32,000 bases of DNA, from contig OW818653.1 in assembly GCA_942492995.1 (NCBI GenBank), positions 1,170,001 through 1,202,000 of the forward strand, in the 5' to 3' direction. Shown piece after piece: positions 3,166 through 11,974 of this stretch (position 1 is the first letter of the stretch; each line of letters begins with the position of its first letter). Made by a program: the position numbers and the translations under genes. This DNA is from an uncultured Erysipelotrichaceae bacterium. GTDB taxonomy: Bacteria > Bacillota_I > Bacilli_A > Erysipelotrichales > Erysipelotrichaceae. The notes beneath the pieces were generated by a model. It saw only the letters and a program-made list of their open reading frames with translations. It made no database searches and was not told where the DNA came from.

Positions 3166-3900
3166 CTGTTTATAATATTCGATTTTTTCAAACAATAAAT
3201 CCGATAGTATTTTTAATTTATCTGGATTCATTGCCTCAACACCTTCAAGTGGGTATTTATAATCGAGCTTTTTGTACTTACTTGTCCCAAGTGTATGATA
3301 AGGAAGAAGTTCTATCTTTTCGACATTCTTTATCCCAGCAATTAATCTCGCGGTTTCATCAATGTTTACTTCGTTATCATTTAATCCAGGCACAATAACT
3401 TGTCTAAGCCAAAACTTAACATTCAAGCTTTGCGCTAATTCTAAGAAATCACTTGTGACTTGCATATCTTGGCCTGTAATCTTTTGATATAACTCAGGAT
3501 TTGCGGCTTTAATATCGTATATTACAAGATCTGTATGACTTAATATTTCTGGTAAGAATGGACTTCTACTGTATCCTGATGTATCAAGACAGGTATTAAT
3601 TCCAGCTTCTTTTAGTACTCTTAATGATTCATTTAAGTACGATGCTTGCATCAATGGTTCACCACCACTAAATGTAACACCCCCCATATCACCATAATAG
3701 GGTTTATAACGTTTCACTAAATTCAATAGCTTCAATGTGTCCATTTGAATACCCGATTCTTGTTGCCAAGTCTCAGGATTATGACAGTATAAACATCTTA
3801 GTGGACAACCTGAAAGGAAGAATAAGGTTCTTATGCCAGGACCATCCACTGTGGCAAATGTTTCTATTTTGTTTATGAAACCGATTTTAGATTGATTCAT
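3157..3900 (-). CDS. pflA: Pyruvate formate-lyase activating enzyme (radical SAM)
   Basis: [14 protein letters not shown] (CX3CX2C) follows [25 protein letters not shown] is also present. Size is 247 aa. The gene overlaps the 3' end of pflB by 14 nt. Confidence 0.93.
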
Positions 3901-6112
3901 GGAAAGTACGTTTTAGAACTTCCAATTGTTGAGATTTTGTTAGACGGTTGAAATGAACCGCATACCCAGAAACACGGATGGTTAGATTTGGGTATAATTC
4001 AGGATGATCCATTGCCATCATTAACACTTCACGAGAATAAACATTAACGTTCAAGTGATGTGCGTTTTGCGCAAAGTAACCATCTAAGATTGAGACTGTA
4101 TTAATAACTTGTTCTTCTTTTGTCTTACCCAATGTTTCAGGTAGGATAGAGAATGTATTACTTACACCATCTTGACATACATCATCATATGGAATCTTCG
4201 CTACTGAGTTAAGAGAAGCTAAAGCACCAGATGTATCACGTCCATGCATTGGGTTAGCCCCAGGTGCGAACGCTTCACCTTTCTTACGACCATCAGGAGT
4301 TGACCCTGTCTTTAGACCGTATACAACGTTTGATGTGATAGTAAGAATGGATAGAGTATGAACTGCCTCACGATATAATGCATGTTCCTTCAACTTAGCT
4401 GCGAAACGTTTAACAACATCTACTGCAATTAAGTCAACACGATCATCATCATTACCGAATTTAGGGAAATCACCTTCGATTTCGAAGTCTACCGCTAAAC
4501 CATGTTCATTACGAATCGGTTTTACTTTAGCAAACTTAATTGCGGATAGAGAGTCAGCGACTACGGACAATCCAGCTGCACCAAACGCCATTAAACGCGT
4601 GATGTGTGTATCATGTAGAGCCATCATGCTCTTTTCATATGCATATTTATCGTGCATGAAGTGGATAATATTCATTGTATCGACATACAACTTAGCTGTC
4701 TTATCCATCATTAGATCAAATAATTCATTAACTTTATCGTAATCAAGCACTTCATCAGTATAGTCAGGAATACCATCAATGATCTTCTCATTGTAGTTTT
4801 CATCACGTCCACCATTGATTGCATATAACAATGCTTTAGCTAAGTTCGTACGTGCACCAAAGTATTGCATTTGCTTACCAATTTGCATCGCACTTACGCA
4901 ACATGCAATCGCATAATCCGTCTTATAAAGTGGTGACATTAAGTCATCATTTTCATATTGAATAGCGCCAGTTTGGATGGACATTTTAGCACAGTACTTC
5001 TTAAAGTTTACTGGTAATAAATCTGACCATAACACTGTCATATTTGGTTCAGGAGCAGGTCCTAAGTTACTTAAGCTATGTAAATATCTGAATGAGTTCT
5101 TAGTCACAAGTGGTTGACCATTACTGGAAACGCCACCAATTGATTCAGTAACCCAAGTAGGATCACCCGCAAACAACTCATCGTATTCAGGAGAACGTAA
5201 ATGACGAACTAAACGTAGTTTAATAATGAATTGATCAATAAGTTCTTGTGCAAATGTTTCATCAATTAAACCTTTTTGTAAATCACGTTCAATATAAATA
5301 TCTAAGAACGTTGAAGTACGGCCTAATGACATCGCTGCGCCGTTATTTTCTTTAACTGCAGCTAAATATGCAAAGTATAACCACTGAACAGCTTCTTGAG
5401 CATTTTGAGCAGGACCTGAGATATCAAATCCATAGGTTGCTGCCATTTTCTTCATATCATTTAACGCTCTGATTTGATCACTCACTTCTTCACGTAAACG
5501 AATGTTAACTTCTGTAATATCTGTAATTTCCGCATGATCTTGTTTCTTAAATGCGATTAATTGATCAATCCCATATAACGCAACTCTACGGTAATCTCCG
5601 ATAATACGTCCACGACCATACGCATCTGGTAAACCAGTTAATAATCCCGTATGACGTGCTTTTTTCATACCTGAAGTATACGCATCAAATACACCTTGAT
5701 TATGTGTCTTTGAATAGTCATTGAAGAACTTCTCAAATTCAGGTTTCATTTGTCTTCCATATACTTCTAAGATTTTTGACGCTAATTTAATTCCACCATA
5801 AGGGTTGATAATACGTTTAAGTGGTGCATCTGTCTGTAAACCAACAATTGATTCATTTTCTCTGATAATATAACCAGGTTTAAAGCTGTTTACGCCAGAG
5901 ATAGAATCCATTTCTATATCTAAAACGCCTAAACGTCTTTCTTCTAACAATAACTCTTCACAACGTTCCCAAACCTTCGCTGTATTCTTAGAAATAGGTG
6001 CTAAAAACGCATCATCTCCTGAATAAGTTGTGAAATTTAAACGGATAAAATCTTCTACATCAATATCTTTCTGCCAATAGCCTTCTTTAAAATTTTCCCA
6101 TGCTTTTTCCAT
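3887..6112 (-). CDS. pflB: Formate C-acetyltransferase (pyruvate formate-lyase, glycyl radical enzyme)
   Basis: 741 aa. It carries the glycyl-radical signature RVSGYAVHF near the C-terminus and the catalytic Cys pair [17 protein letters not shown] lies 6 nt before the ATG. Confidence 0.97.
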
Positions 6113-6142
6113 AGAACACTCCTTTATTGACTAAACATAGGT

Positions 6143-6168
6143 ATTCTACCATAGTGATTTACATCACA
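6143..6168 (-). promoter_or_regulatory. pflB promoter (extended -10 TGGTAGAAT) overlapped by a Rex/CRP-FNR-like palindrome TGTGA-N6-TCACT
   Basis: Minus strand reads CTGTGATGTAAATCACTATGGTAGAAT. The inverted repeat is at 6168..6153 and TAGAAT at 6148..6143. The palindrome covers the -35/spacer region. Confidence 0.4.
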
Positions 6169-6194
6169 GTAGTATTATTATCTTGTTTTTTTAA

Positions 6195-6208
6195 TGTAAG
6201 CGCTTATA
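6195..6208. promoter_or_regulatory. cre-like (CcpA) site TGTAAGCGCTTATA
   Basis: One mismatch to the TGWNANCGNTNWCA cre consensus. It lies about 65 bp upstream of the predicted pflB transcription start, in the divergent pflB/response-regulator intergenic region. Confidence 0.45.
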
Positions 6209-6244
6209 TACGAAAAGTTTCATCTTTCTTTCTTTTCTACCAAT

Positions 6245-6264
6245 TTTGCGTCAGTTTTGCGTAA
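6245..6264 (+). promoter_or_regulatory. 11-bp-phased direct repeat TTTGCGTCA-gt-TTTGCGTAA (putative OmpR-family operator, copy 1)
   Basis: Seen directly in the sequence. It sits 20 bp upstream of TATACT (6285..6290), in front of the response regulator gene. The same motif recurs at 8338..8357. Confidence 0.5.
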
Positions 6265-6296
6265 CATTTTTAGTTTGTTTACACTATACTAAAACT

Positions 6297-6986
6297 ATGA
6301 ACATGATCTACTTAGCGGAAGATGAAACCGCAATACGCGAAACGATTATAAGCTTTCTAAGTTCTGAAGGTTACCAAGTTATTGGATTCGAGAACGGTGA
6401 TGCTTTATACGATCAATTTATTAAACAATCCTGTGATTTGGTTATTTTAGATGTGAATATGCCAGGCAATAATGGCTTTGAAATCACTAAGAAAATCAGA
6501 CAAAATAGTATCGTTCCCATTCTACTTCTTACTGCTCGAGATAGTGATTTAGATTATGCGACTGGAATAAATCTTGGTAGTGATGATTATTTCACTAAAC
6601 CATTTAGCGCTATCGCATTGGTCATGCGTGTAAAAGCATTATTACGTCGTGTTGAGATGGACCAAAAATCAAATGATTCAAACCCAAAAGAAATCGATCA
6701 GAATGGTGATTTAAGTATTAATCGTAAGACACTCGAAGTAAAGATTAATGACCAAACCATTGATCTTACGCCAATGGAATATCAAGTTTTATGTTACTTT
6801 TTTGATCATAAAGAAAAAGCGATTTCACGCGATGAACTTCTAAATAATGTTTGGGGTTATAGTAAAGAAGTTGAAACTCGTGCATGTGATGATACAATAC
6901 GCCGTTTAAGAAAGAAATTAGAACTCAGTCAAGTTCAAATAGAGACAATTTGGGGATTTGGCTTTAAATTAGGGTTGAAACAATGA
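6297..6986 (+). CDS. OmpR/PhoB-family response regulator
   Basis: Receiver domain: LAEDE, the phospho-acceptor context VILDVNMPG, and KPF. C-terminal winged helix: LTPMEYQVL...VWG...IRRLRKKL...GFGFKL. The ORF track start at TTG 6246 is rejected because it covers the operator and promoter. ATG 6297 gives MNMIYLAEDE. Confidence 0.9.
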   Translation: MNMIYLAEDETAIRETIISFLSSEGYQVIGFENGDALYDQFIKQSCDLVILDVNMPGNNGFEITKKIRQNSIVPILLLTARDSDLDYATGINLGSDDYFTKPFSAIALVMRVKALLRRVEMDQKSNDSNPKEIDQNGDLSINRKTLEVKINDQTIDLTPMEYQVLCYFFDHKEKAISRDELLNNVWGYSKEVETRACDDTIRRLRKKLELSQVQIETIWGFGFKLGLKQ

Positions 6987-8326
6987 TAAAGAAACCGCTA
7001 TCCATAAAGTTTAGATTTATGTCATACATTACCGTCGTTCTTATCGGTGTTTTTATCGTAATCACATATACTTTTAATACTGTTTTTACCCAGTATATTG
7101 AATCCAATGCGACGAAAGCACTTGAATACAATCGAAGTTTTATAACGGGTGGTGACGATGGTCCACGTCAACATGAGTTTAGCAATCAAACACAATTAAT
7201 CGTAATTAATTCTAATTATCAAATCATTGAAGATCGACCGATTCCAAATCTACCGAATACAGATCCAAAGATATCAATTGTACAAGCGATTAAGGATAGC
7301 GAAATTAGTTTAGAAACACAATCCATTGAACAAATACTCGTCAATGATCAACCTGTCTATTTTACAGTTGTGACGAGTGATAAAACGCCAGGTTACTACC
7401 TTATTTTCTATATTCAAATGGATTCCCTTACAACTTTCCAAGATAATGTGACATATGCATTATGGATTATTATGTTTATTGTATTAGGTTTAGCTCTTAT
7501 CACTATGAATTTTATGACAAACTCGATTGTTAAACCAATCAAAGCTGTTCAGAAATTTGCGCATCGTATTGGTGAAGGCGACACATCAAATGAATATGTT
7601 CATTATCCCGATCTTGAAATCAATCAACTAAATGCTTCTATGAATGATATGGTTAATAAACTTAACGCTCAAGATGAATCGCAACGTTCGTTTTTCCAAA
7701 ATGTGTCTCACGAATTAAGAACACCACTTCAAATCATAAAATCACAAACAGAAGCTGTACAAGCCGGTTTAACACCTATCAATACCGCAGCTCAAACAAT
7801 CCACACTGAAGTTGATAATTTAAGTCAATTAGTTGATGATATTCTAGTACTTTCTCGCTTAGAGAGTAAGAGTAATGAATTGATTAAATCTAAGAATGAT
7901 TTACGTGAAACTATTAGTTCTACGAGTGAGCGATATCGTAGTTTAGCTAACCAAAAAAATATAGCGTTTAACTTTGAATTTGATTTAAAACCAGTTTATT
8001 TTGACTATAATGAATCGTCAATGGAAAAAGTTATTTCTAATTTATTAAGTAACGCATTAAGGTATGCGAACCATACCATCACATTAAGATGTATGAGTCA
8101 AAATGATTGGATATTAATTGAAATTGAGGATGATGGGGATGGAATTCTTGAAGAAAATATACCGTATCTATTTGATCGATTCTACAAGGATAAAACAGGT
8201 CAATACGGTATTGGATTAAGCATTGTTCAATCCATCATACATTCATACAATGGTCATATTGATGTTAAATCAAACCCAGGCAAAACATGTTTCACAATCT
8301 TACTCTACCCAAATTACCCAGCTTAG
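6983..8326 (+). CDS. Sensor histidine kinase (2 TM, extracytoplasmic loop, HAMP, HisKA, HATPase_c)
   Basis: H-box FFQNVSHELRTPL, N-box LSNALRYA, G-boxes EDDGDGI and GIGLSIV. TM helices at about aa 15-35 and 158-178. The start overlaps the RR stop (ATGA). Confidence 0.9.
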   Translation: MIKKPLSIKFRFMSYITVVLIGVFIVITYTFNTVFTQYIESNATKALEYNRSFITGGDDGPRQHEFSNQTQLIVINSNYQIIEDRPIPNLPNTDPKISIVQAIKDSEISLETQSIEQILVNDQPVYFTVVTSDKTPGYYLIFYIQMDSLTTFQDNVTYALWIIMFIVLGLALITMNFMTNSIVKPIKAVQKFAHRIGEGDTSNEYVHYPDLEINQLNASMNDMVNKLNAQDESQRSFFQNVSHELRTPLQIIKSQTEAVQAGLTPINTAAQTIHTEVDNLSQLVDDILVLSRLESKSNELIKSKNDLRETISSTSERYRSLANQKNIAFNFEFDLKPVYFDYNESSMEKVISNLLSNALRYANHTITLRCMSQNDWILIEIEDDGDGILEENIPYLFDRFYKDKTGQYGIGLSIVQSIIHSYNGHIDVKSNPGKTCFTILLYPNYPA

Positions 8327-8340
8327 CTGGGTTTTTCTTT
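8317..8340 (+). terminator. Rho-independent terminator of the two-component operon
   Basis: CCCAGC-TTA-GCTGGG followed by TTTTTCTTT. The HK stop codon TAG (8324..8326) spans the loop and the first base of the 3' stem arm. Confidence 0.6.
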
Positions 8341-8357
8341 GCGTCAAACTTGCGACA
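8338..8357 (+). promoter_or_regulatory. 11-bp-phased direct repeat TTTGCGTCA-aa-CTTGCGACA (putative OmpR-family operator, copy 2)
   Basis: Same motif and phasing as 6245..6264. It follows the TCS terminator directly and lies upstream of TATACT (8400..8405) and the GGAGG SD of the VTC gene. Confidence 0.5.
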
Positions 8358-8425
8358 TATTTCTATCGTTTTACCGTAAGAACAAATTCCTACATTTTTC
8401 TATACTTAGTGTAGGAGGTAAGAAA

Positions 8426-9109
8426 ATGACACATATACTTCGCAATGAGTTGAAATATGAAATTCCATTAAAAGAGAAAAATAGCTTAATCGAACGTTTA
8501 AATCCAGTTTTAAAACTTGATCCACATTCATCTTATGATGGTTATTTGGTTAAAAGTTTATACTTCGATGATTATTTTGAATCAGCGTTAAATGACAACT
8601 TAGAAGGCAATCAAATAAGACACAAATATCGTATACGATTTTACAATTCAAATACGTCATACATCTGTTTAGAGAAGAAAGTTAAAGTATTAAACAAAGG
8701 TTATAAAGAAAGTGTTTGTATCAGTGAAGATGAAGTAAGAATGATTCTTAATGGTTCATATGATTGGATGTTAGAGAAAAAGAATAACGTATTAATGGAG
8801 TTGTATACCGAGATAAAAAATAAAGGGTTAAGACCTAAAACAGTAATTGTTTATCAAAGAATTCCATACTTATTTCAAGCCGGGAATATACGTATTACCC
8901 TTGATTTCAATATTCATTCCACCAATCAAATTGAACATTTTCTTGATATAAACAAATCATTTGTACCACACACTCAAGATCGATGTTTATTGGAAATTAA
9001 ATATGATGCGTTTATTCCAGACTTTATAAAACAACTTATTCAATTACCTCAATCGAATTGGATATCACATTCAAAATATGTCCAGAGTCGACTCATACAA
9101 AAACGTTAG
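8426..9109 (+). CDS. VTC domain protein (polyphosphate polymerase-type triphosphate tunnel domain), soluble
   Basis: Blocks R-N-E-L-K-Y-E-I, YRIRFYN, LEKKVK, YQRIPY, IRITLDFN, LEIKYD and SKY match the conserved basic/acidic tunnel residues of VTC/CYTH-like domains. GTAGGAGG SD precedes ATG 8426. The longer ORF from TTG 8339 is rejected. Confidence 0.85.
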   Translation: MTHILRNELKYEIPLKEKNSLIERLNPVLKLDPHSSYDGYLVKSLYFDDYFESALNDNLEGNQIRHKYRIRFYNSNTSYICLEKKVKVLNKGYKESVCISEDEVRMILNGSYDWMLEKKNNVLMELYTEIKNKGLRPKTVIVYQRIPYLFQAGNIRITLDFNIHSTNQIEHFLDINKSFVPHTQDRCLLEIKYDAFIPDFIKQLIQLPQSNWISHSKYVQSRLIQKR

Positions 9110-9120
9110 GAGATTAAAGT

Positions 9121-9792
9121 ATGACATTCAGTGAAATTTTTAAGAATAATTTTTTAGAACAAATGAGTGAATTCTCAATGATTGATTCACTTATCGCATT
9201 AGGTGCCGCTTTCTTATTAGGTTTACTAATCTACACATTATATAAACGCACGTTTAAAGGTGTAATGTATTCAGAATCATTCAATCTATCATTAATATTA
9301 CTAACCCTTCTAACAACATTTATCATACTTGCGGTCACATCAAACGTTGTATTATCACTAGGTATGGTTGGGGCATTATCAATTGTTCGTTTTAGGACTG
9401 CGATAAAAGACCCTCTTGACCTTGTGTACTTATTTTGGGCTATTGGTGGAGGAATTGTGGTTGGGGCTGGAATGATTCCATTAGCTCTAGTTGGATCATT
9501 CTTTATTGCCCTAATCCTATGGATTAAGTCGAGTGTTAGTGATAAAAACCAACCTTATTTAGTGATTATCCATACCAATGAAGAGAAAGCAGAAATAAAA
9601 GCCCAATCAATTTTATTTAGAAGAGCTTATAAAATTCGATTGAAATCTAAAACTAAAAACAAGATCGAAACAGAATTAATCTTTGAAATACAGTTAAACA
9701 ATCAAGATAATGCGTTTATCAATGAAATAGCAGCGATTGTTGGGATTACAAACGTTCAATGTGTTAGTTACAACGGTGATTTCAATGAATAA
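9121..9792 (+). CDS. DUF4956 domain membrane protein
   Basis: Several TM helices and the highly conserved SIVRFRTAIKDPLDLVYLFWAIGGGIVVGAG block. A soluble C-terminal domain of about 80 aa follows. It lies 12 nt downstream of the VTC gene. Confidence 0.8.
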   Translation: MTFSEIFKNNFLEQMSEFSMIDSLIALGAAFLLGLLIYTLYKRTFKGVMYSESFNLSLILLTLLTTFIILAVTSNVVLSLGMVGALSIVRFRTAIKDPLDLVYLFWAIGGGIVVGAGMIPLALVGSFFIALILWIKSSVSDKNQPYLVIIHTNEEKAEIKAQSILFRRAYKIRLKSKTKNKIETELIFEIQLNNQDNAFINEIAAIVGITNVQCVSYNGDFNE

Positions 9793-9892
9793 ATTAATCA
9801 TTGTGTGTATTATCTTGCTTACCCAATTTACAGGTTGTACTCAAGTAGATACACAGACACAGACAAGTCAAAAAACAGAAAGTAGAAACTAA
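9785..9892 (+). CDS. 35-aa mini-lipoprotein candidate
   Basis: Not in the ORF track (too short). It reads MNKLIIVCIILLTQFTGCTQVDTQTQTSQKTESRN, i.e. a signal peptide plus the lipobox F-T-G-C. A GGTGAT SD-like element lies 4 nt upstream. It overlaps the DUF4956 stop by 8 nt. It could be a remnant rather than a functional gene. Confidence 0.35.
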   Translation: MNKLIIVCIILLTQFTGCTQVDTQTQTSQKTESRN

Positions 9893-9898
9893 AGAGTT

Positions 9899-10186
9899 AT
9901 GAAACATAGATTCATTATCGGAATATTATTATTAAGTTTATTCGGCGCGTGTACACAGGAAGTTGTAAGTGTCGAGGATGAAGATGAGTCAATCATGGAA
10001 GATGAAACAAAAGAAGAATCTGAATCAGCCGTTGAAAATGAAACAGAAGAAGAATCTGAATCAATCGAGTTGAATACAACTGAAGATACACAAACTAAGA
10101 CAAGTAAACAAAAACGTCATAGTGCTATTGAAAGTGAATCAACTTTAATTAGCGCTTACGATTTATACGAAAATGAGGAGATTTAA
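9899..10186 (+). CDS. Small, highly acidic (Glu/Asp-rich) lipoprotein
   Basis: Signal peptide MKHRFIIGILLLSLFGAC with lipobox L-F-G-A-C. The mature part is dominated by E/D/S/T and contains a 36-nt tandem repeat. Confidence 0.6.
   Translation: MKHRFIIGILLLSLFGACTQEVVSVEDEDESIMEDETKEESESAVENETEEESESIELNTTEDTQTKTSKQKRHSAIESESTLISAYDLYENEEI
10001..10072 (+). repeat. 2 x 36-nt in-frame tandem repeat (DETKEESESAVE / NETEEESESIEL)
   Basis: gatgaaacaaaagaagaatctgaatca... at 10001 and aatgaaacagaagaagaatctgaatca... at 10037. Aligned by eye. Confidence 0.7.
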
Positions 10187-10187
10187 C

Positions 10188-11951
10188 ATGAAAAACAAGT
10201 TAACAATAGGATTAATATTATTAAGTTTATTTACTGCATGTGTATCAGATACAGATGTTGTTCAAGAAGAAACGAACACAACTGAAGTCACAAATGATGT
10301 AGAAGTATTATCGAGCATCACAATTGAATATAACGAAGATGATTTATTAATGGAATATACTGACTTTGAAGTTATTACCCTAGAATCAAGTTCTATCAGT
10401 TATACCGGTTCAAATGCGACAATCGATGGGACTACACTTACAATTACGAAAGCTGGTACTTACAAGGTTATTGGAACACTAGATGATGGAATGATTGTGG
10501 TAAATGCTGGACAAGAAGAAGATGTCGTTATTGTGCTAGATAATGCGACAATTCACAATGAAGATGGACCTGCAATATCGGTATTGCAAGCAGATAAAGT
10601 AATTATAAACTTAGCTGATGGAAGTTCAAATTCATTAAGTGATGGGTCGAGTTATACATTATTAGATGGCGAAGATGAACCAAATGCGACACTTTATAGT
10701 AAAGATGATCTAACAATTAATGGCTTAGGTTCTTTAACCATTGATTCTAATTATAATCATGGGATTTATACAAAAGATGATTTGAAACTTGTGTCAGGTA
10801 CTATTACAGTTAATGCAGTTAATGATGGTATAAAAGGTAAAAACTTTATTGCGGTAAAAGATGCGAACATTACTGTTAATGCGAATGGAGATGGACTCCA
10901 ATCCAATAATACAGAAGATACGACAAAAGGATATGTTGTGATCGATGGTGGAAACATCATAATCACTGCTGGATTAGATGGTATTCAAGCTGAAACACAA
11001 CTCGTTGTATCTGATGGTACTATTTCAATTGAATCTGGGAGTGAAGCAGATAGTACTGAAAGTGGAAAAAGTTTAAAAGCTACAGTTCAAGTTGAGATTT
11101 TAGGTGGTGAAATTACCTTAAACTCATTAAGTGATGATGCGATTCACTCAAATAATACAGTCATTATTAAAGGTGGAAAATTAACCTTAAACGCAAATGA
11201 TGATGCGATTCATTCAGATAGTTTATTACAAATAGATGATGGCACAATAAACATCCAATCATCTTATGAAGGACTTGAAGGTAATACGATTATTATAAAT
11301 GGAGGCGATATTGAACTTATCGCAAGTGATGATGGAGTTAATACAGCTGGAGGAAATGATAGTAGTGGAAGTACATCACCTAATGGAAGAGAAGATATGT
11401 TCGCAAGTGATGGTAGTACACTAACCATCAATGGTGGTAATTTGGTTGTTAATGCGAATGGGGATGGGTTAGATTCGAATGGATCAATTGTACAAAATGG
11501 TGGGACTGTAATCGTTTATGGTCCTACTAATAGTGGAAATGGGTCACTTGACTATAATTCATCCTATACATTGAACGCTGGAACATTACTCGCTGTTGGT
11601 AGTAATGGAATGGCACAGAATGTATCTGAATCCAAACTATATGCATTCTTACTCGGTACAACTACAATTGAAGCTGATACATGGGTAAGTATTGTACAAG
11701 ATGGGAATACACTTGTTAGTTTCAAATCACCTAAGGCATATCAAACAATCGTATTCGCATCAAACGAATTAACAAGTAGCGATGTTAGTATTGTGTCAGG
11801 TGGTACGTTAGATACATCTGAATCAATTGTGTTTAACTCTCCATTAAATGGTGGATCTGAGCTTACCACATTAACATTGACTGACATCATTACGAATAGT
11901 ATTGTGGGAAGTACCCAAACTCCGGGTCAAAAACCAGGAAGACCAAACTAA
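10188..11951 (+). CDS. Cthe_2159/DUF4353-like right-handed beta-helix lipoprotein (annotated in databases as carbohydrate-binding domain-containing protein)
   Basis: Signal peptide MKNKLTIGLILLSLFTAC (lipobox). There are at least ten periodic turn motifs: DGPAIS, NHGIYT, NDGIKG, GDGLQS, LDGIQA, DDAIHS (twice), YEGLEG, DDGVNT and GDGLDS. AGGAG SD precedes ATG 10188, so ORF track start 10173 is rejected. Confidence 0.7.
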   Translation: MKNKLTIGLILLSLFTACVSDTDVVQEETNTTEVTNDVEVLSSITIEYNEDDLLMEYTDFEVITLESSSISYTGSNATIDGTTLTITKAGTYKVIGTLDDGMIVVNAGQEEDVVIVLDNATIHNEDGPAISVLQADKVIINLADGSSNSLSDGSSYTLLDGEDEPNATLYSKDDLTINGLGSLTIDSNYNHGIYTKDDLKLVSGTITVNAVNDGIKGKNFIAVKDANITVNANGDGLQSNNTEDTTKGYVVIDGGNIIITAGLDGIQAETQLVVSDGTISIESGSEADSTESGKSLKATVQVEILGGEITLNSLSDDAIHSNNTVIIKGGKLTLNANDDAIHSDSLLQIDDGTINIQSSYEGLEGNTIIINGGDIELIASDDGVNTAGGNDSSGSTSPNGREDMFASDGSTLTINGGNLVVNANGDGLDSNGSIVQNGGTVIVYGPTNSGNGSLDYNSSYTLNAGTLLAVGSNGMAQNVSESKLYAFLLGTTTIEADTWVSIVQDGNTLVSFKSPKAYQTIVFASNELTSSDVSIVSGGTLDTSESIVFNSPLNGGSELTTLTLTDIITNSIVGSTQTPGQKPGRPN

Positions 11952-11974
11952 AAGGACAATTAAGTCCTTTTTTA
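11951..11974. terminator. Bidirectional terminator hairpin between convergent genes
   Basis: AAAGGAC-AATTAA-GTCCTTT followed by TTT on the plus strand. The AKR stop codon abuts it on the other strand. Confidence 0.6.

Follow-up and report, generated by a model that had tools for sequence, protein, structure and literature searches.

What does a bacterium make with a stand-alone relative of the yeast polyphosphate (polyP) polymerase Vtc4 that is encoded together with a membrane protein and exported lipoproteins? This question is raised by an operon at positions 6245-11974 of the window, that is, of the whole analyzed stretch of 32 kb (about 32% GC) from the low-GC genome of an uncultured Erysipelotrichaceae bacterium (contig OW818653.1, positions 1,170,001 to 1,202,000). 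A sequence-only reading had seen here a two-component system (TCS), formed by an OmpR-type response regulator (RR) and a histidine kinase (HK), and downstream of it genes for a VTC-domain protein, a DUF4956 membrane protein, two small lipoproteins and a beta-helix lipoprotein similar to Cthe_2159; it had suggested that together they synthesize polyP, or another phospho-polymer, and deliver it to the cell surface. The genes are indeed located where they had been placed, and the RR, HK, VTC, DUF4956 and Cthe_2159 assignments are confirmed by Pfam, the profile searches for the last three families yielding matches that are above the cut-off or strong.

The system is real, conserved and widespread, the same operon being seen again in Erysipelotrichales, Lactobacillales and Clostridia. 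The association of VTC with DUF4956 has been noticed before and never explained; the link to a TCS, the Cthe_2159 variant and the exchange of modules with CotH are new, as far as could be found. The catalytic constellation of the VTC protein, its fold, the near-obligate pairing with DUF4956, the export of the further partners and the regulatory link are all firm, and they are described in this order below.

Catalytic residues and fold of the VTC protein

The VTC-domain protein (positions 8426-9109, plus strand; 227 aa, pI 9.0) is the candidate polyP polymerase. It matches the Pfam family PF09359 with E-value 1.4e-36 and 126.6 bits at the cut-off of 23, and spans profile positions 2-231 of 235. 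A single-sequence phmmer search against the PDB yields only spurious matches to PPR repeats, and the family profile is required; the profile of 31 homologues matches the catalytic domain of yeast Vtc4 (3G3Q) with E-value 1.8e-11.

According to the cryo-EM study of the VTC complex, triphosphate is coordinated in Vtc4 by K200, R264, R266, K281, R361, K458, S457 and Y359, and Mn2+ by E426; all nine residues are needed for polyP synthesis, as follows from mutagenesis, and K458 is the sole one to be replaced in the inactive Vtc2 (by Ile) and Vtc3 (by Leu) (10.1101/2023.01.27.525886). In the family-profile alignment, K10 of the window protein corresponds to K200 of Vtc4, R69/R71 to R264/R266, and E83-K84-K85 to E279-R280-K281, while in the C-terminal half Y143/R145 correspond to Y359/R361, R156 to R373, E190/K192 to E426/K428, and S216/K217 to S457/K458. 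The C-terminal part of this alignment is weak when taken alone, and the residue mapping is backed by the full-length structural match (see below). All nine triphosphate and Mn2+ residues are present in the window protein, and the mapping given in the sequence-only reading proved to be correct. The tunnel residues are conserved in the bacterial family as well: the Vtc4-ligand positions show 97-100% conservation across 249 bacterial homologues, and K217, the equivalent of K458, is found in 237 of 237 aligned sequences.

The AlphaFold2 (AF2) model of the protein, built on the family alignment, has eight strands and pLDDT 91.8. The structure-based comparison with the Vtc4 tunnel domain, proposed in the earlier reading as a check, gives Vtc4 itself as the top Foldseek match in the PDB (TM-score 0.75-0.77, E-values down to 4.8e-14). 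Ranks 1-12 are occupied by Vtc4 or chains of the VTC complex, rank 13 by Vtc2, while the TTM hydrolase YgiF has TM-score 0.60. Neither an SPX domain nor a transmembrane segment was identified in the 227 aa by Pfam and sequence analysis, the VTC domain being the only one, so the protein is soluble, as had been assumed. With the complete Vtc4-type constellation, the protein looks catalytically competent, and it is probably a polyP polymerase.

Strand 1 of the window protein, R6-N-E8-L-K10, departs from the ExExK motif of the CYTH/TTM hydrolases. R6 replaces the first Glu of this motif and is invariant in the bacterial family, corresponding to R196 of Vtc4; the R-x-E-x-K pattern as a whole is halfway between Vtc4 and the ExExK of tunnel hydrolases. 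Given that this invariant pattern keeps the second Glu of ExExK, which Vtc4 has lost, and that the TTM superfamily is diverse, with YgiF, CyaB-like cyclases and ThTPase among the structural neighbors, the VTC protein might be not a polymerase but a triphosphate-tunnel hydrolase or phosphotransferase (a tripolyphosphatase, an NTP-dependent transferase or a cyclase-like enzyme) feeding envelope modification together with DUF4956 and the exported partner. We consider this quite unlikely, since the nearest matches by both sequence and structure are Vtc4 and not hydrolases, the residues needed for polyP synthesis are invariant, including the equivalent of K458 that separates Vtc4 from Vtc2/3, and the replacement of the first Glu by Arg is shared with Vtc4.

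The DUF4956 membrane protein

The next gene (positions 9121-9792, plus strand) encodes the candidate membrane partner or conduit, a DUF4956 protein of 223 aa (PF16316, E-value 1.8e-10; 41.3 bits at the cut-off of 30.6), and 32 of its 32 aligned homologues match the family. Its description as a protein with multiple transmembrane segments is upheld by the Pfam match and by the AF2 model (pLDDT 72.5), in which an N-terminal amphipathic helix is followed by five helices (residues 20-143) and a C-terminal beta-alpha-beta-beta-alpha-beta domain.

No solved homologue of DUF4956 was found in the PDB by sequence, with either single-sequence or profile searches. By structure, the best PDB match of the C-terminal domain is the C-terminal domain of MgtC (2LQJ; E-value 1.2e-4, TM-score 0.63 on the target), with generic ACT, NikR and BMC folds close behind. 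Sequence similarity to MgtC stays below the cut-offs (19.7 bits at the cut-off of 31.4 for Pfam MgtC, 25 bits at the cut-off of 214 for NCBIfam PRK09977), and a weak MgtC match is seen in just 3 of the 32 homologues. Judging by these comparisons, DUF4956 appears to be MgtC-like and is not Vtc1-like.

The near-invariant core of the family, ...LLTTFIILAVTSNVVLSLGMVGALSIVRFRTAIKDPLDLV..., includes R90, R92 and K96, its invariant motif being ...SIVRFRTAIKDPxD... About 40 consecutive residues of the transmembrane part are invariant, and the three basic residues lie on a loop that is predicted to be cytoplasmic. Across orders, DUF4956 proteins are 55-65% identical, compared with 35-46% for the VTC proteins. 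By the positive-inside rule, the basic loop and the C-terminal domain would both face the cytoplasm, where the VTC protein would sit, and it is very likely that the VTC protein works physically with DUF4956.

The similarity to MgtC can also be read in another way: polyP would be made at the membrane and kept inside the cell, DUF4956 being an MgtC-like anchor, a regulator of ATP, inorganic phosphate or cation homeostasis, or a recruiter of VTC, and the exported proteins being merely co-regulated as part of a stress or colonization regulon. The MgtC-like architecture of DUF4956, the best match of its C-terminal domain, the weak MgtC matches in Pfam and NCBIfam, and the intact catalytic constellation of VTC all agree with this explanation, as does the action of MgtC on the F1Fo ATP synthase and PhoR (as cited in PMC12345266). 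However, the polar transmembrane core of DUF4956, rich in small residues, is highly conserved and resembles a pore or substrate path more than an anchor. Moreover, the third gene of the operon is nearly always exported, in hundreds of genomes and with several alternative partner families (see below), and a product confined to the cell interior can hardly explain that. Hence we regard intracellular polyP as an unlikely outcome, and return to the export reading in the sections that follow.

One more observation concerns the diversity of the pair. In a divergent VTC clade (L104, L124 and L154; loci of 6.4-8.0 kb) the VTC proteins are 267-283 aa long and carry an N-terminal extension of about 40-50 aa, while the DUF4956 proteins paired with them match the Pfam profile with E-values 1e-48 to 1e-50, compared with 1e-10 in the Firmicute clade. 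As their Pfam scores are higher, the window DUF4956 belongs to a divergent branch of the family. The divergent VTC-DUF4956 pair also stands before a Cthe_2159 gene.

Gene neighborhoods and exported partners

At least 594 confirmed VTC relatives were found among species-representative genomes with one peptide pattern, and the neighborhoods were counted in the best 80 of these loci (81 loci in the partner counts), genes within 6 kb of VTC being considered as partners. The DUF4956 gene is located directly downstream of VTC on the same strand in 74 of the 79 loci with room for it, typically at a distance of about 24 nt, so the co-occurrence of the two genes, on which the sequence-only reading depended, is better than chance. 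In the reverse direction, VTC was found upstream in 3 of 3 look-ups started from relatives of the window DUF4956. The metagenome scan for Cthe_2159 relatives yielded 29 loci with at least 3 kb on both sides, 23 of them linked to VTC/DUF4956 (20 by our own VTC hidden Markov model (HMM) and three by Pfam, our HMMs having missed the divergent clade).

Chance juxtaposition of the operon genes was considered and ruled out by the VTC/DUF4956 linkage (74/79) and the Cthe_2159 linkage (23/29).

The most frequent partner is CotH, present in 54 of the 81 loci, followed by Pel genes (PelF, PelG, DUF2194) in 21, a TCS in about 14, and DUF4832 and true Cthe_2159 in 12 each. CotH occurs without Pel in 33 loci, and Cthe_2159 without CotH or Pel in 12, while about a quarter of the loci reside inside Pel operons with a DUF4832 protein. 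Two layouts recur: [RR-HK]-VTC-DUF4956-(CotH or Cthe_2159), and (Pel...)-CotH-[short Cthe_2159]-VTC-DUF4956-(DUF4832). The three loci reached from the DUF4956 side are represented by Marinilactibacillus piezotolerans, where the order RR-HK-VTC-DUF4956-Cthe_2159 is identical to that in the window, by a Romboutsia-type contig (L167) with RR-HK-VTC-DUF4956-CotH, and by an Erysipelotrichaceae metagenome-assembled genome with VTC-DUF4956-Cthe_2159. The export of the downstream partners, noted earlier for the window, holds across the loci, as N-terminal hydrophobic export or anchor segments are found in 52 of 55 CotH and 12 of 12 Cthe_2159 partners, compared with one of 81 VTC proteins.

In the first layout one slot holds either CotH or Cthe_2159, and the N-terminal signal-anchor motif MSTHKxIDKIC...LFMNGExLG is common to both. 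Thus, by module swapping, one and the same anchor in this slot of the operon seems to receive either of two unrelated extracellular domains, and DUF4956 could dock at the anchor motif. The motif is carried within the first 35 residues or so by proteins of L002, L009-L013, L018-L020, L026, L032, L036, L039 and L042; the window Cthe_2159 protein has a lipoprotein signal in place of such an anchor. In L167, a second protein of 595 aa (10123-11910, minus strand), convergent to the VTC-DUF4956-CotH operon, shows faint Beta_helix/NosD matches and may be a distant Cthe_2159-like partner.

No paper combining DUF4956 and VTC was found in the literature search. Whitfield et al. 2020 (PMC7112168) counted cotH, "poly-phosphate polymerase", DUF4956 and DUF4832 among the accessory genes of pel operons in Gram-positive bacteria, and VTC, "tubulin/FtsZ" and CotH genes have been listed in the NELoc-2 locus of Clostridium perfringens (Lepp et al., PMC2879425). 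In a 2025 mBio study the DUF4956, VTC and CotH genes of Streptococcus intermedius were deleted one by one, and the DUF4956 and CotH mutants showed less Pel-dependent aggregation and altered Pel levels (PMC12345266). Enzymology is absent from all these papers; so, of the earlier statement that no such operon had been characterized, the part on enzymology stands, whereas the gene association and the S. intermedius deletions have been published. The claim that the DUF4956/VTC/CotH triad is absent outside Pel loci (PMC12345266) is contradicted by the 33 of 81 loci with CotH and VTC-DUF4956 that have no Pel genes within 6 kb.

In NELoc-2, each VTC gene is followed by a gene for a 222-226-aa "putative tubulin/FtsZ GTPase, cytoplasmic membrane" (CP4_0461/CP4_0464). 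By size, position and membrane location, these are very probably DUF4956 proteins, and the glycine-rich stretch GGGIVxGAG may explain the tubulin label.

The beta-helix lipoprotein and small open reading frames

The last gene of the window operon (positions 10188-11951, plus strand) encodes the exported partner, a Cthe_2159-family beta-helix lipoprotein of 587 aa with the lipobox LFTAC. The likeness to Cthe_2159, suggested before, is now backed by the Pfam match (PF14262, E-value 1.7e-94, 316 bits) and by the match to PDB 4PEU (E-value 7.5e-42). The protein is very acidic, with pI 4.05 and net charge -59.

The composition of this and the Pel-linked loci allows for a further explanation, in which the operon would serve surface glycans or adhesion: its main output would be the carbohydrate-binding beta-helix, or CotH acting on a Pel-like polysaccharide, and VTC/DUF4956 would supply phosphate or polyP for covalent attachment to a glycan or protein, with no release of free polyP. 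Indeed, the annotation of Cthe_2159 is that of a beta-helix binding cellulose and pectin (Pfam description; PDB 4PEU), roughly one locus in four belongs to a Pel operon with a DUF4832 protein, SIR_1591, the DUF4832 counterpart in S. intermedius, has glycoside hydrolase activity (PMC12345266), CotH is a kinase, and Pel levels are altered in the S. intermedius mutants (PMC12345266). However, in the window and at many other loci neither CotH nor genes for polysaccharide synthesis are located nearby, and the phosphate donor must still cross the membrane, which makes this explanation largely a sub-variant of export; on its own, we consider it very unlikely.

Two short open reading frames (ORFs) separate DUF4956 from the beta-helix gene, and all three ORFs downstream of DUF4956 start with lipobox-type signal peptides (FTGC, FGAC and FTAC). 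The second of the two (positions 9899-10186, plus strand) encodes, as had been described, a very acidic lipoprotein of 95 aa (pI 4.08), a lineage-specific accessory gene: only its C-terminal part is kept in L081 and L086, and L083, L166 and L168 have no small acidic lipoprotein at all. The first (positions 9785-9892, plus strand; 35 aa) had been taken for a separate mini-lipoprotein gene. Its lipoprotein-type signal is real, but it does not stand as an independent conserved gene. An exact look-up gave no entry for it in the protein collection, and relatives at about 70% identity have one ORF of 62-73 aa between DUF4956 and Cthe_2159, with none at loci that are more remote. The 62-aa product is a lipoprotein whose N-terminal part resembles the 35-aa ORF of the window and whose C-terminal part resembles the end of the 95-aa ORF. 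In L086, where the Cthe_2159 protein is 90% identical to that of the window, one uninterrupted ORF of about 54 aa occupies this site, and compared with it, about 230 nt are inserted in the window, which brings in a second signal peptide and a 36-nt acidic tandem repeat (10005-10086). From the single ORF in L086 and this insertion, the 35-aa ORF is probably an N-terminal remnant left when the small lipoprotein gene was partially duplicated.

The codons of ...ENEEI that end the small lipoprotein hold the ribosome-binding site GAGGAG of the Cthe_2159 gene (10171-10190), located 1 nt before its ATG region, and thus the conservation of the peptide may partly reflect translational coupling and not protein function.

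Two-component system and operator-like repeats

The operon is preceded by genes for the OmpR/PhoB-family RR (positions 6297-6986, plus strand; 229 aa, Pfam Response_reg and Trans_reg_C) and the HK (positions 6983-8326, plus strand; 447 aa). In the latter, two transmembrane segments flank an extracytoplasmic loop of about 120 aa and are followed by HAMP, HisKA and HATPase domains (HATPase_c in Pfam); no family match was found in Pfam for the loop. Both proteins score below every NCBIfam equivalog cut-off (PhoB/PhoR, WalRK, CseBC, BaeSR and others), the best scores being 187 at the cut-off of 350 for RR and 167 at the cut-off of 725 for HK.

Orthologous RR and HK are found upstream of VTC in three orders. 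The window RR is 63.5% and 56% identical to the VTC-linked RRs of Marinilactibacillus and Romboutsia, respectively, and the HK is 40% and 30% identical to the corresponding kinases, while the VTC proteins are just 35-37% identical to that of the window. These identities to VTC-linked pairs point to an orthologous sensor pair that travels with the operon.

The direct repeat TTGCGTCA-N3-TTGCGT (positions 6246-6262, plus strand) upstream of the RR gene is a candidate autoregulatory RR box, and TTGCGTCA-N3-TTGCGA (positions 8339-8355, plus strand), located after the HK terminator and upstream of VTC, is a candidate RR operator. The pattern TTGCGW-N5-TTGCGW has exactly two copies in the 32 kb, both just upstream of operon starts. 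Both boxes are kept in relatives at about 70% protein identity, the RR-side box being invariant in three, while the surrounding non-coding bases vary, most clearly upstream of VTC. Repeats with the same 11-bp spacing also precede VTC in both M. piezotolerans and Romboutsia, and in the former they precede the RR gene as well. The candidate -10 box of the VTC operon, TATACT (positions 8402-8407, plus strand), is invariant in four aligned relatives; its distance from the repeat is about 46 nt in the window, and in Romboutsia a third repeat occupies the -35 position.

In many Clostridia, VTC is preceded by a second, non-orthologous family of OmpR-type TCS, with the RR about 31-35% identical to that of the window. 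The clostridial VTC box is CTAAG-N6-CTAAGG, located about 12 nt before TATAAT and about 60-100 nt upstream of VTC (L008, L009, L017, L026, L037, L039, L042 and L079). Thus, control of VTC operons by TCS seems to be general. RR-dependent activation of the window VTC operon through the putative operators is well supported by the sequence comparisons, and the proposed TCS control agrees with both the co-travelling orthologous TCS and the conserved repeat box upstream of the VTC and RR genes.

The spacings between the genes from RR to Cthe_2159 are -4, 99, 11, -8, 6 and 1 nt, which fits both the tight packing ascribed earlier to the VTC operon (11, -8, 6 and 1 nt) and its separation from the RR-HK pair. 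The intrinsic terminator after the HK gene (8316-8341, plus strand), also predicted before, consists of a hairpin at 8316-8332 with a 7-bp GC-rich stem (-11.9 kcal/mol, z-score -3.0) and a U-tract, and is kept in relatives. The end of the operon was likewise predicted correctly: the bidirectional terminator hairpin at 11950-11971, between the VTC operon and a convergent aldo-keto reductase gene, has -8.8 kcal/mol and z-score -2.5, and is followed by UUUUUU.

Several further observations concern the half-site and the flanking regions. The octamer TTGCGWCA, which is the half-site of the putative RR box, occurs 10 times in the window (3033, 6246, 8339, 8350, 12173, 13221, 16105, 21161, 25647 and 29507), compared with 1.65 expected and the maximum of 5 in 100 shuffles, the only promoter-located copies being the two tandem pairs. 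The RR gene and the pyruvate formate-lyase gene (3887-6112, minus strand) diverge from an intergenic region of 184 nt (6113-6296). This region keeps about 90% identity among relatives (L081/L084/L085) whose proteins share only about 70-80%, which hints at a high density of regulatory elements in addition to the RR box. The operon is flanked by housekeeping genes, both here and in the syntenic relative, and no CotH, DUF4832 or pelDEADAFG genes adjoin the window operon. The role in anti-phage defence was also considered and dropped, since PADLOC profiles gave no match to the VTC, DUF4956, 95-aa lipoprotein and Cthe_2159 proteins.

Proposed model of polyP synthesis and export

Taken together, these data can be arranged in the following scheme. 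An extracytoplasmic signal would activate HK, and phosphorylated RR would bind the 11-bp-spaced TTGCG-type direct repeats, thereby activating both the RR-HK and the VTC operons. The tunnel enzyme, a soluble protein of 227 aa, would dock on the cytoplasmic face of a DUF4956 oligomer and polymerize polyP from ATP (with Mn2+/Mg2+); DUF4956 would receive the chain and probably let it through to the outer side of the membrane. There the exported partners would capture, organize or use the polymer, probably via bridging divalent cations; in the window these would be the acidic Cthe_2159 protein and the small acidic lipoprotein, and elsewhere the CotH kinase, the Pel machinery or DUF4832.

The full scheme, in which a TCS-induced Vtc4-type polymerase and an MgtC-like DUF4956 synthesize and export polyP, is in our opinion plausible but tentative. 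In particular, we infer the polymerase activity, the VTC-DUF4956 contact, translocation and the role of the beta-helix, translocation being suggested by the adjacency of VTC and DUF4956 (in 74 of 79 loci) combined with the exported partners.

The following points weigh against this scheme. No Pfam match to the Vtc1/DUF202 channel domain was found in any protein of the operon at E-values up to 0.01; given also the MgtC-like character of DUF4956, the eukaryotic complex serves as an analogy and not as a family assignment. The nearest, albeit weakly, relatives of DUF4956 are the MgtC proteins, which are regulators of ATP synthase and PhoR and not channels (PMC12345266). Among the catalytic residues, E8 is invariant in bacteria at the position of T198 in Vtc4, and it partly restores the ExExK motif of hydrolases. 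No VTC-DUF4956 fusion proteins, which would provide a Rosetta-stone signal, were found in the 81 loci. Direct binding of polyP by the acidic beta-helix (net charge -59) is unlikely unless cations bridge the two, and the solved Cthe_2159 homologue is annotated as carbohydrate-binding. Finally, the VTC deletion in S. intermedius had no aggregation or Pel phenotype (PMC12345266), and our literature search found nothing on the enzymology of any bacterial VTC protein.

In reviews, polyP synthesis is attributed to PPK in prokaryotes and to VTC4 in eukaryotes (PMC7332688). The operon offers a concrete, widespread and directly testable candidate for PPK-independent and extracellular bacterial polyP. 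In its broadest form, the proposal is a bacterial route of polyP production independent of PPK, in which a Vtc4-type polymerase would feed a non-homologous, MgtC-like DUF4956 pore leading to the surface, where the polymer would be tethered or used by interchangeable exported modules, possibly as an extracellular phosphoryl donor; in this form it is doubtful. If true, this would be the first bacterial polyP synthase-translocase, likely related by evolution to the catalytic core of eukaryotic VTC, and would inform the origin of the eukaryotic polymerase.

It would also be a candidate for the kind of pathway behind the PPK-independent extracellular polyP reported in Gram-positive bacteria. About 100 uM of extracellular polyP, independent of PPK1/PPK2, was described in the Bacillus cereus group in an August 2026 preprint (PMC13484657), where it is credited to an "uncharacterized pathway" and where B. 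cereus is stated to have no VTC4 homologue; hence the VTC-DUF4956 system does not account for the polymer in that group. Through the operon, polyP is connected with Pel biofilms, CotH kinases and a pathogenicity locus of C. perfringens; the operon also makes a compact test bed, with two small core proteins, a dedicated sensor pair, a recognizable candidate operator and cultivable hosts such as M. piezotolerans.

Comparison with known systems

As regards the bacterial polyP kinases, PPK1 and PPK2 have the same presumed product as the window VTC protein; still, the folds are unrelated, and PPKs are not coupled to membrane or exported partners.

The closest gene arrangements are the Gram-positive pel cassette (PMC7112168; SIR_1592-1594 in S. 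intermedius, PMC12345266) and NELoc-2, which share with the window the VTC-DUF4956 pair, the exported third partner and Firmicute hosts. Unlike the pel cassette, the window operon has no Pel, CotH or DUF4832 genes, its partner is a Cthe_2159 lipoprotein, and it is preceded by a dedicated TCS.

Compared with Cthe_2159 of Clostridium thermocellum (4PEU/4PHB), the window beta-helix protein has the same right-handed beta-helix and 41% identity over about 207 residues. It differs in being a 587-aa lipoprotein with a long C-terminal extension and in belonging to a subfamily that is mostly linked to VTC/DUF4956 (23/29).

The MgtC/SapB proteins (Salmonella MgtC and the Mycobacterium tuberculosis domain 2LQJ) resemble DUF4956 in size and, as far as its predicted layout goes, in about five transmembrane helices followed by a cytoplasmic beta-alpha-beta-beta-alpha-beta domain. 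However, the profile scores are below the cut-offs, and DUF4956 has the SIVRFRTAIKDPxD core and the pairing with VTC, which MgtC does not have.

Finally, the window VTC protein and yeast Vtc4 (PDB 3G3Q/3G3R, 7YTJ and 8I6V) share the PF09359 domain, the eight-stranded tunnel (TM-score 0.75-0.77), identical triphosphate and Mn residues including K458, and genetic coupling to a membrane protein, which for the window is consistent with synthesis coupled to membrane transit. On the other hand, the window protein is a stand-alone one of 227 aa with no SPX domain and no fused three-helix transmembrane domain, it lacks the extra helices of Vtc4 and Vtc3, and has an invariant Glu at the position of T198. 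The membrane partner is DUF4956 in the window and Vtc1 in yeast; regulation is by a TCS, as opposed to inositol pyrophosphates; and the polymer would be directed to the cell exterior, and not to the vacuole lumen. With neither SPX nor a Vtc1-type channel, the window system does not belong to the eukaryotic VTC complex; it applies the VTC polymerase principle in a bacterial version, with another membrane partner and another mode of regulation.

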